Shown: piece after piece, positions 3,356 to 64,000 of the stretch | Layout of the letters: each line of letters opens with the position of its first letter | Position numbering within the stretch: position 1 is the stretch's first letter | Source of the DNA: Isurus oxyrinchus | Lineage: Eukaryota | Length of the DNA: 64,000 nucleotides | Direction: 5' to 3' | NCBI GenBank assembly: GCA_026770705.1 | Contig: JANJGN010000012.1 | Coordinates: 136,028,001-136,092,000 of the forward strand | Notes under the pieces: model-generated | Seen by the model: only the letters and a program-made list of their open reading frames with translations | What the model was told of the DNA's origin: nothing | Databases searched by the model: none | Position numbers and translations under genes: made by a program

Positions 3356-53944
<50,589 letters not shown>

Positions 53945-59670: not shown

Positions 59671-62600
59671 TCAGTAACTCAACACCTTTCATATCCACAG
59701 GATGTGCCATTACTCTTCACTATCCATGAATTACTTAGGTAGCTACTGTTGTCCTTTAGGCAAACATGGCAGCAAATTTGCTCAAAGCTTGGCTCTACAA
59801 CCAACGAGATAATTAATAATTTGATTAATAATTTTAATTGATTTATTTGAAAAGGAACAATGAGCAGGGTTATAGGAGAATGGCAGTGAAATGTTCAGTC
59901 GGCGAGCCGGTAGAGACATGATGGGCCAAATAGCCTTCTGTGCTGTAACAATTCTGTGATTCTGTGAAATTCAGTTTGGATTCTGCCAAGATAACTTGGT
60001 TCTAGATATCTTTACAGCCTTGGTACAAACATGGACAAAAGAGCTGAATTTCAGAGGCGAGCTGAGAGTGCCTGCCCTTGACATAAAGGCAACAATTGAT
60101 TGAGTTTGGTATCAAGGAACCCTAATAAAAATGAAGTCAATGGGAATCAGTCTCAGCAGTGAAATTCACATCCCATGAATTAATTTTTAAAAATTACCAT
60201 CCCTAATCTGTTTTACAATTTCTCCTTTACTGAAAAGGTACAGCTGTCAAAAGATATAACAAATCCAGCTTAATAGTTTGATTTTTTATAAATAACTTTT
60301 TTGATTCCATTTTTCTCTCTCCCTTCCAACTCTCACCAGCCAGCAATAACAGTTGTTGAGATGGTCACTGGTGCTTTCCAGTAACTTGCCTTAGTGACTT
60401 TAGATGAAGGTGAGGAAAGATGTAGCTCTTTTCACGGAGTCACACTGTCTGCTGCATATTTTGCCAACTACAACCTAATCGCCTCTCAATCTGCCTCCAA
60501 AATAGAAGAACAAGTTCTTGAATGTGCCCTGGGGCCATCAGGCATTGGTGGTGAAATGACTCAAGGGATGGCTCTTTTAGATGCACCAGAACCACAGCTA
60601 GCAATCTAACAAGAGAGTGATAGAGAAACCAGGTTACATTTATACTTCCTGAAATGAACAGTGAAAATCACTCTTAAGTATGCTTGTGGTTTGGAGAGGC
60701 AACTAACAATAATGCTTTCATACCGGATGTCAATACTTGCTTTCATATCAGTTTGAAGCCTTCTAACGTAAATAGCACTTTTGACATTTTATGGATGCCC
60801 TAGAAATATTGTGCACTTCTAAAGCTAAACTGAAGATGACAACCCAGCATTTGCAGTTTAGATTTGAAATCCAGTTGCTGGGGTTTTGCATCACATTAGA
60901 GTGCAATCTGTATTTGGATCAAGCATCCCTGTTTACGTAGCAACTTTATCAGTGGCTCTCCTTCAGTAAACACTGAAGCGAGTGCATTAATGTGCCTTTA
61001 GAAGACGATTTAGGTAATATCATCTTAAGACTGTCCCTGCTTTAATGCATTGATCTCTCTGCTATGGTTCTTCTCATCATAAGTTAGAACCCTGTAGATC
61101 ACAATTTTCAACAGTTTTGTATAAAAAAGAACCTCAATAGGTTAAAAGAAGTGCTAGTTCCATCTGTTAACTGGTCCTGTAAATCACCCCCAAATCCTCA
61201 ACCACCAGTGACCACCACCGCCCCCCCCAACGCAACCAATTTTCTGTGCTCCACTATAGACGATAAGTTTTTGAGATTTCTGGGCACAATAAAGTTGTCT
61301 GAATGTGAAAGCACTTTCACAGTATGCATTTATTTGATACAATCACTGTTATTTCCATCATTCACAAACATATTTCACTGGCCCATTGCTGAATATGTTA
61401 ATCTCATTCTTTCAGATGAGTTTTTTGAACTTGCAAACTTAGAAGAGGCTTTCAAGGAACAGAAAGGTCTTAGGACCAAGTGAGATCATCTCACAAAGGC
61501 ACAAGGGAAGGGGTTGACAGCAGAGAACTACAAAGGAAAACAACTTCAGTGAATTTGGGCTCCCAATGTTGATCAAAGCCAGCAGCCCCAGTCAGAAGGG
61601 CGTGGGTAAGTCAAATTTGAACAGGTTCCAATCTCACATCCTCTTGACAAGTCTGTTGATACTTACTCAAACACATGAAATAGATAATTGGGCAAAGTAC
61701 TGGAGGACAACGGCTACTTGTGTATAATTAAGCTCCAAATCAGACAAAGCCTTCTTGCAACTATCAGGTGTGCGCAATCAGAGCTCCAATGTACCCCTTT
61801 CACAATTAACCTTACAATCAGAGTTATATCAATGGAGTTATGAAAAAAAAATTGCCAAGTGCACATGGGTGGGCATCTGAATAGATATTCCAAGTGCACT
61901 TACACAGTAGCAGGGTCCTGAACTTCAGTTCCTTGCCCCACGGCAATTTATTATTCTGATGACACAGCAGATGGTGTGTGCCAGGCAGATCAAATCCACA
62001 AGGGAAACTTGATCACACTATCACAACGGTTTTGCAATTTGTATTTATTACGAGATGCGTGCCCCGAATTCAGAAGTAATCAGTCCACCAAGACTTGAGA
62101 TTTAAAAAAACAAAATTAAAATGTTTATTAACAAAAGCGATTTCAAGCACATACACAGAACTACAAATTACTACTATAATAATTCTTAAAATCTCCAATT
62201 AACCTGGCTCCCAGTTACACCTTCTTTAAGGCAATGGTCCAAAAATAGATTTTAAACAGATTTAGCAAATTATCACAATACCCAGACAGTGGAATTCAAA
62301 TGGCTCCCTCCAGCTTCAGTTTCTGTAGACTGCAGACTTATGCACAAAAATACTGGAGGCTTCACACAGTTATGTTAGATCTTACAATACCTTCCCCTGA
62401 CACAGACTCATTCTCCTTTATATGTTTCTCCCTTTTTAATCTGTAAATTCCATTGTTTCCATGTGTCTTTGGAACTTTAGCTTTCTCATAATATAAATCT
62501 TTTTATGATGCCACTATATATTGTCAGGAATTCTTGAAAAAAATAAATATTCCTTAACTAGTTCGTCTGGCTATCTGTAAACAGACTGAGGTCCCTTTGA

Positions 62601-62714
62601 AAACCAATTCCCCTTTCTATCTAAAAATGCAAATTCCCTTTTATATCTTACATGCTAAGGCCCCAACCATGTTTACTCATTAGCATATTAAAGACACTTC
62701 TACACCTTACTTCT

Positions 62715-62766
62715 GGGGCCAAGGTAGAAGCGTTCACATCGCGGCCCTGTTTCAACCAATTCTACT
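62715..62766 (+). ncRNA. HDV-like (double pseudoknot) ribozyme fold
   Basis: P1 GGGGCC/GGCCCT with G1-U wobble; P2 GGTAGAA/TTCTACT; P3 GCG/CGC; L3 TTCACAT; J4/2 CCAA. Confidence 0.7.
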
Positions 62767-64000
62767 ACCACCACACACAGCAAGTAGTGTATATAACATT
62801 TTTGTACCGCTGATTTGATCAAGTACCAACATCATGCCTGAAGACGGAAGTCATCAATGTCAGAAACACGGGTCTTTTTCAAGACCGGCATTGACTGTTA
62901 TATCTGCTAACATTGAAGGGTTCTTTGTAGCTAAACAAAACATCCTTGCTACATTATGTAATGAGTTGCAGTGTGATGTCCTTTGCCTGCAGGAGACACA
63001 CAGAGGAAGTGAGAACAATGGCCCAAAAATACCAGGAATGTCCCTGGTTATTGAAAGACCTCATCGACAATATGGCAGTGCTGCATTTGCTAGAGCTATG
63101 TTGTAGCTTCAGTTGTAGAAGCCACTTCTAAAAAAGAGGAGGACAACATCGAAATTCTAACTGTAGAGCTAAGCAAAGTAGTAGTGACCTCAGTGTACAA
63201 GCCACCTGGCACAGATTTCAGCTTCTCTAACCCTGTACATTAAACCACAGATCATCACTGGAGACTTTAATAGCCACAGTACCCAATGGGGGTACAAGGA
63301 GTATAACAACGATGGAGAAACAGTTGAAGAATGGATGGACGCTAACCAGCTTAGTCTCATCCACGATCCTAAATTGCCAGCCTCCATCCACAGTGCTCGC
63401 TGGAAGTGTAGTTATAACCCAGATCTTGCCATTGTCAGCAACGACATCCTGGCCCCTGCAAGAAGCTTGTCACAGATCCAATACCACAGACACAACACCG
63501 TCCTATTGGTATCCAGGTAGATGCAGCAGTGTTACCAACCGTCATACCATTCAAAAGGCGCTTCAACTTCAGGAAGACCGATTGGAATGGGTTCATTCGA
63601 GCATTTGACCGTAAGGTTAAACGCATTAAACCCCACCTGAGCACTACAACCTGTTTGCAAAAGCTGTCCAGAAAACAGCCAGATGGAAAATCTCCCGAGG
63701 TTGTAGAGCATACTACATCTCTGGTCTCACCAAGGAGAATGCTGAACTCTACTGGGAGTATGTCTCAATGTTTGAATCTGACCCCTTCTAAAAGGAAACA
63801 GTATCTACAGGTGAGAGGGTAATGTTAATTATCTCTCAAGAGTGTCAAAACACCTGAGACACCTTGATTGGGACAACAGATCTTACAAAAAACAGCAAGA
63901 AGGCATGGTCTCTCATACGCAAACTTGGAGGCGATCCCAAGAAAGCTGCCCAACATCCAAATGTGTCTGCTAACCAAGTTGCACACCAGTTGCTCCTAAA
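62715..64000 (+). mobile_element. Ingi/Vingi-like LINE 5' end (APE endonuclease), disrupted ORF, runs off the window
   Basis: ATG 62834; LTVISANIEG, DVLCLQETH, ERPHRQYGSA, IITGDFNSHSTQWGY, YNPDL, FKRRFNFRKTDW; stops and frameshifts. Clade assignment is from motif recall. Confidence 0.75.

Follow-up and report, generated by a model that had tools for sequence, protein, structure and literature searches.

What are the 52 nucleotides with which a decayed LINE begins near the end of the 64-kb stretch of DNA analysed here (the window), and why do they resemble a ribozyme that has been reported only from mammals? Among the self-cleaving RNAs encoded in the human genome, the CPEB3 ribozyme of mammals has been studied well, and work in mice has linked it to memory. 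Published HDV-like ribozymes already include some from lancelet, sea urchin and lamprey, and a part of these may be the same Vingi elements under an older name. The initial annotation of the window had proposed an HDV-like ribozyme for the 5' end of a Vingi-like LINE, and this reading has stood: together, a match to an Rfam model, the protein relatives of the element, the start that its copies share and a related, intact element with a target-site duplication (TSD) place an HDV-like fold precisely at the 5' end of such an element. That annotation overlooked the near-identity with the CPEB3 ribozyme of mammals, and it is this likeness that makes the locus most interesting. On the sequence evidence we consider it highly probable that a decayed Vingi-like LINE opens, from its base 1, with an HDV-type module for 5'-end processing at 62715-62766. 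We file this module as a variant homologue of HDV-like ribozymes, with putative activity only, because the G25 signature of these ribozymes is absent.

Geometry and detection of the fold

The plus strand of 62715-62766 forms an HDV-like double pseudoknot of the CPEB3 type, 52 nt long, with a 6-bp P1 and without P4. Its parts are the following:

62715..62766, plus strand: HDV-like (CPEB3-type) fold, from Rfam, a descriptor and base pairing
62715..62720, plus strand: 5' strand of P1, pairing with 62743-62748
62723..62729, plus strand: 5' strand of P2, pairing with 62760-62766
62730..62742, plus strand: P3 (62730-62732/62740-62742) and L3 (62733-62739), from pairing and the Rfam alignment
62738, plus strand: A at the G25 position of HDV/CPEB3 ribozymes, with loss of the U20-G25 metal-binding pair
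62743..62748, plus strand: 3' strand of P1, pairing with 62715-62720
62749..62750, plus strand: P1.1 partners, G62749-C62735, with U62750 opposite U62734 like the U-U of CPEB3
62751..62755, plus strand: 5-nt linker where P4 would stand, from the Rfam alignment and the descriptor
62756..62759, plus strand: J4/2, reading CCAA; C62756 is the putative catalytic C (CPEB3 C57, HDV C75)
62760..62766, plus strand: 3' strand of P2, pairing with 62723-62729
62767..62833, plus strand: remainder of the 5' UTR, ending at the ATG at 62834

P1, P2, P3, the seven-nucleotide L3 and the possible C-G pair of P1.1 all lie where the initial annotation had drawn them, its near-absent P4 corresponds to the mere 5 nt at 62751-62755, and the first ATG stands, as it had noted, at 62834, 68 nt past 62766. 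The nested double pseudoknot of P1, P2, P3 and P1.1 that marks HDV-like ribozymes is present, and G1 sits in the pair that opens P1 at the cleavage site, here the wobble G62715-U62748, which coincides with the insertion junction. J4/2 holds a catalytic C followed by NAA: C62756, already proposed for this role, aligns with C57, the catalytic C of the Rfam CPEB3 model, and no C>G change at 62757 was seen in runs X2, X14 and X15. The U20-G25 trans-wobble in L3 is lacking, this loop reading TTCACAT with A62738. P2 has 7 bp and is closed in the window copy by a wobble, G62723-U62766; other copies carry C at 62766 (depth 5839 of 5976 in run X1 and 2382 of 2455 in run X2) and through it form the full 7-bp helix. 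The covariation that had been expected is seen as compensatory changes in P2, whose pairs change on both sides among the window, CPEB3 and lancelet Vingi-1_BF; this was judged by eye, and a MAFFT alignment of the window with the metagenome loci L001 and L002 (see below) was not sensible.

Two further observations concern the flank. U62714 could lengthen P1 through a wobble with G62749. The host sequence at 62694-62703 is 90% complementary to 62724-62733, the 5' strand of P2/P3, and could misfold the window copy; the minimum-energy folds of this copy did not adopt that pairing.

Could such a structure be chance pairing in the 5' UTR of a LINE? Its nested folding energy is ordinary against shuffled sequences (z -0.69), which would suit chance pairing and is also what is expected for a pseudoknot. 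The Rfam model CPEB3_ribozyme (RF00622), however, matches 62704-62766 with 38.1 bits against a gathering threshold of 35 (E 8.3e-08, 4 kb searched), and this is the sole gathering-level match in the 64-kb window. An HDV descriptor found one match in the window, exactly at 62715-62766, and matched 1 of 1000 dinucleotide shuffles, a count that is generous because the descriptor was devised after the sequence had been seen; the Rfam score is the independent test. A stricter descriptor matched none of 200 shuffles but missed L002, with its 5-nt J4/2, and the loosened version was used for the 1000 shuffles. We give chance pairing next to no credence and regard it as ruled out by the Rfam score together with the start of the fold at the insertion junction.

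The element and its clade

62834..64000, plus strand: start of the single APE-RT ORF of a Vingi-like LINE, with stops and frameshifts, running off the window, from protein matches

The ORF matches residues 1-390 of a 996-aa relative in three pieces with 55-59% identity, and identity reaches up to 73% over its first 90 aa. An APE endonuclease domain is detected in it, and the window ends before the RT, the 3' tail and the second target-site copy. Vingi elements are defined by a single ORF of APE type and, unlike Ingi, by the absence of RNase H (PMC13708176, in part; here and below these words mark a source available in part). Here APE is found in the window, and APE with RT in relatives at 55-73% identity; RT is present in the relatives and APE in most of them, their length is mostly close to 1000 aa, and RNase H shows up in none of the four that were scanned and none of the 120 listed among 378. 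Those with names include proteins of Anolis, Branchiostoma and Strongylocentrotus, which are hosts of named Vingi families. Domain layout and relatives suit a putative assignment of the element to Vingi, and the window copy is a dead, decayed insertion.

Proteins of the teleost Pogonophryne albipinna share 69-70% identity with the product over its N-terminal 90 aa (62834-63103), a high value for a decayed copy; horizontal transfer between fish lineages is possible. One 970-aa relative (P0214) is annotated from the cyanobacterium Moorena and is probably animal contamination in that assembly.

The insertion junction and other copies

62714..62715, plus strand: 5' junction of the element and predicted cleavage site (U-1/G1), where the flanking repeat is interrupted and copies start
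62550..62714, no strand assigned: part of a high-copy repeat, unrelated to the LINE, that hosts the insertion, from contig mapping

Copies were examined through the contigs of four of 24 sequencing runs (X1, X2, X14 and X15), aligned to 62550-63300. By contig depth in the four runs, the DNA to the left of 62715 is a different and far deeper repeat. Its contigs diverge from the window at 62714 in every one of these runs (39, 49, 16 and 4 contigs) and continue past that point with one common other sequence, so the LINE interrupts the repeat exactly at 62714/62715. Among 32 listed pieces, with 1456 further ones, five begin at the edge of the element and are preceded by unlike sequence. Copies had been expected to start at the equivalent of G62715: among the pieces listed, three do so (records 6, 13 and 32), one starts at 62717 and one at 62712. 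An edge piece from organism C is ungapped over 62712-62816, and the 6-bp P1 and the missing P4 are therefore not peculiar to the window copy. A search of the 64-kb window found neither the element nor the flanking repeat a second time.

[quoted passage not shown] The interrupted repeat, at about 62040-62714, looks by eye like a minus-strand solo LTR, with a poly(A) signal near 62125 and an LTR-like end near 62050.

Relatives in metagenomes and wider searches

Protein alignment against metagenomes gave three confirmed loci among 170 stretches: L002 with an intact ribozyme, L001 with a degenerate core and L003 without a 5' end. L002 (2722-6124) is an intact APE-RT element of 992 aa with 51% identity to P0002. 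Its ribozyme starts at 2722 and is canonical HDV-like, with a 7-bp P1, G25 kept and a 5-nt J4/2. A 12-nt TSD abuts the G1 of this ribozyme and is repeated at 6113, after a TAA-repeat tail; taken with the junction in the window, this makes ribozyme G1 the first base of the element in both. The same protein alignment gave no confirmed locus among 47 stretches of viral contigs, and the ribozyme core pattern hit no stretch of viral contigs.

Three smaller points belong here. The upstream flank of L002 reads by eye like the endonuclease region of another LINE. At 60-140 of L001, upstream of an ORF that looks intact, lies a CPEB3-type core in degenerate form; the 5' strand of its P1 is missing, and a short duplicated stretch precedes the core. 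In prokaryotic genomes the core pattern hit two stretches, neither of which fits the descriptor, and both were taken as chance.

A possible route to the 5' ends of the element

If the element is processed as R2, L1Tc/ingi and RTE are known to be, a copy would be transcribed by read-through from a host promoter, and its first 52 nt would fold as the HDV-type double pseudoknot that the sequence presents. C62756 would act as general acid, with Mg2+, in a cut 5' of G62715. The resulting RNA would begin at G1, and full-length insertions would do the same, a start that is visible at the DNA level. The module is a compact variant, with one P1 pair fewer and no P4, of the ribozyme in lancelet, sea urchin and crocodilian Vingi. 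L1TcRz/Pr77 of trypanosomatid L1Tc/ingi and the R2 ribozymes are likewise HDV-like, with the cleavage site at the RNA 5' end as proposed for the window; they belong to other clades and hosts, and activity has been demonstrated there, whereas the window module is known from its sequence. Points against this explanation are A62738, a sea-urchin match (Vingi-2_SPur) away from the start of its consensus, the degenerate state of L001 and the missing 5' end of L003.

Likeness to the CPEB3 ribozyme and to named Vingi sequences

The CPEB3 and Vingi identities given here were counted by eye from printed sequences and not by program. The human, elephant and opossum CPEB3 ribozymes are printed in the supplement of PMC8233481, and the supplement of PMC5786205 (in part) aligns SINE2-1_AMi with four Vingi consensus sequences. 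Window and elephant ribozyme are identical at 41 of 48 aligned positions; the window has a compensatory P2 change (C12-G65 to U-A), other copies have a second one (A10-U67 to G-C), and one G-C pair is gone from both strands of P1. The two share a one-pair P1.1 plus U-U and the C at the C57 position, and they differ in that the window version has a P1 of 6 rather than 7 bp, no P4 and A instead of G25, and is multicopy at the 5' end of a LINE in a cartilaginous-fish-like genome. The locus of RF00622 is a single copy in a mammalian CPEB3 intron, whereas the window sequence is multicopy and has ITCH as its host gene. The window fold is a homologue of the CPEB3 ribozyme, not an orthologue.

Of the 54 positions that can be aligned between gharial Vingi-2_Gav and the CPEB3 ribozyme of the opossum, 53 agree. 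In CPEB3 register this is 39 of 40 for bases 2-41 and 14 of 14 for the last 14 ribozyme bases; inner P4 alone differs, and base 1 is not printed. The Vingi-derived SINE2-1_AMi of the alligator is identical to the opossum ribozyme at 59 of 66 positions, a count that takes in a 4-nt loop and a P4 stem in full agreement (14 of 14). The core recurs, its P2 altered by paired changes, in Vingi-4_Crp, in lancelet Vingi-1_BF and in sea-urchin Vingi-2_SPur, the match in Vingi-2_SPur lying at 395-451 of the consensus and not at its first base. All of these named sequences share with the window the P1-P2-P3-L3 core and the position of J4/2. The crocodilian Vingi and SINE matches begin at consensus base 1-2, SINE2-1_AMi has the same shorter 3' strand of P1 as the window, and the L3 of Vingi-4_Crp also reads TTCACAT. 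Unlike the window, the named Vingi sequences and SINE2-1_AMi retain P4 and CGAA, and G25 as well except in Vingi-4_Crp.

Likeness between Vingi and CPEB3 could in principle reflect convergence on a constrained active site and not descent. Such a case has been argued for the active sites of R2 and HDV (PMC3774820, in part), which share 21 of 27 core nucleotides (cited in PMC8256844). Here, however, the identity extends outside the active site through P1, J1/2, P2 and the P4 stem, as the 53 of 54 and the 14 of 14 counted by eye indicate, and L002 forms the same fold from quite different helix sequences. The fold therefore does not force the likeness, and convergence seems improbable to us.

We hold with strong confidence the alternative of descent, by which the mammalian CPEB3 ribozyme would go back to a Vingi 5' end that was inserted before marsupials and placentals diverged and was domesticated, with the crocodilian, shark, lancelet and sea-urchin Vingi ribozymes as outgroups. 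A direction from transposon to host is likely, since the core is present in invertebrate Vingi and the CPEB3 copy has been reported from mammals only. The human genome is known to contain traces of Vingi (PMC5753468, PMC9004415, both in part), and domestication of intronic ribozymes in general has already been proposed (PMC7761336, in part). As far as it was available, PMC5786205 gives RTE, Ingi, R1, R2, R4 and LOA as ribozyme-bearing clades and does not name the 5' ends of Vingi or SINE2-1_AMi as ribozymes; the available parts of PMC10919898 and PMC9901934 do not raise a Vingi origin of the CPEB3 ribozyme. The literature covered on the CPEB3 ribozyme and Vingi, a scope outside which lie bioRxiv supplements, Repbase Reports, patents and some key papers, holds no statement of such an origin.

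Activity and the A at the G25 position

The initial annotation had called this a minimal, P4-less LINE ribozyme. The fold does lack P4, but a P4-less retrotransposon ribozyme with a 6-bp P1 was already known in R2, where a P1 of 6 or 7 bp occurs and the P4 region may not be long enough for a helix (PMC3774820, in part). Minimal HDV-like ribozymes without P4 are active (PMC10879173, in part), and drz-Mtgn-1 and the theta ribozymes are P4-less like the fold in the window. Nearly 99% of minimal P4-less ribozyme matches are in phages, many beside tRNAs, according to a source available in part, whereas the one in the window heads an animal LINE.

More problematic is the base at 62738. The U20-G25 pair is perfectly conserved in natural variants (PMC3386971, in part), and with G25A a ribozyme of C. 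briggsae showed no cleavage that could be observed within 60 s (PMC13635239, in part). It had been suggested that CAT in L3 is a CpG-decayed CGT. Run X2 gives this no support: its five A>G places are all located elsewhere and none falls at 62738, where G was thus not seen at 5% depth or more, in a bin where depth dips and with variants near contig ends filtered. A>G places beyond those listed number 4 in X1, 1 in X14 and 3 in X15, and G at 62738 is possible there. The three CpGs neighbouring 62738 are intact in the window copy. A25 is probably the state of the family in run X2 (organism B) and not a decay specific to this copy, and owing to A in place of G25 we lean towards a window copy that cleaves slowly or not at all. 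Either the ribozyme of the master element is weak or dead and an internal promoter is used, or A25 is tolerated in the compact fold.

The former possibility leads to a vestigial fold, in which G25A would have killed cleavage in the master, the 5' ends would be set by an internal promoter at +1, and the sequence would have been kept as a promoter, a translation signal or a protein-binding site. L1Tc offers a model, as the same 77 nt serve there as promoter (Pr77) and ribozyme with the same +1 (PMC3185411, PMC3383444, both in part), and transcripts from an internal promoter with its start at +1 would have 5' ends no different from those made by ribozyme cleavage. That A seems family-wide in run X2 and that G25A is strongly deleterious elsewhere, in reports available in part, would agree with a dead master. 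Yet the catalytic C, P1.1, the G1-U wobble and all helices have been retained, with compensatory changes, and X1, X14 and X15 may hold G at 62738. A vestigial fold appears to us rather unlikely, and an HDV-type processing module is the reading that we prefer. That the shark-like family possesses a natural, active 52-nt P4-less ribozyme which tolerates A at the G25 position is a tentative proposal, and we would sooner doubt it than rely on it.

Host gene context

3359..53944, minus strand: coding exons of the host gene ITCH, on the strand opposite to the element

The exons of this E3 ligase gene match residues 1-874 of a Scyliorhinus protein, and among seven ITCH proteins compared the elasmobranch ones share the most identical residues. 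From the first coding exon of ITCH (53944) the element is 8.8 kb upstream, in antisense orientation. Its proximity might invite the idea that the host has recruited the window copy as a regulator of ITCH, just as the CPEB3 ribozyme controls its gene. But being antisense and upstream, the fold is not on the ITCH transcript; it carries A25, the window copy differs from others as a neutrally decaying repeat does, and no listed contig spans the whole stretch. We hold co-option at ITCH to be most improbable and reject it for an antisense, decaying copy.

Implications

Taken alone, the feature in the window is a modest addition, and its value lies in exposing Vingi as the probable source of the CPEB3 ribozyme. 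As a natural P4-less variant with A25 it can serve to test how far the G25 metal site is needed. Vingi-1 elements are under development as gene-writing tools that retain the native 5' UTR (PMC13708176, in part), so the role of this region matters in practice. A Vingi source, if true, would supply outgroups for the CPEB3 ribozyme and make its pre-mammalian state testable, and it would be a clear-cut example of a ribozyme that passed from a transposon into the service of host regulation.
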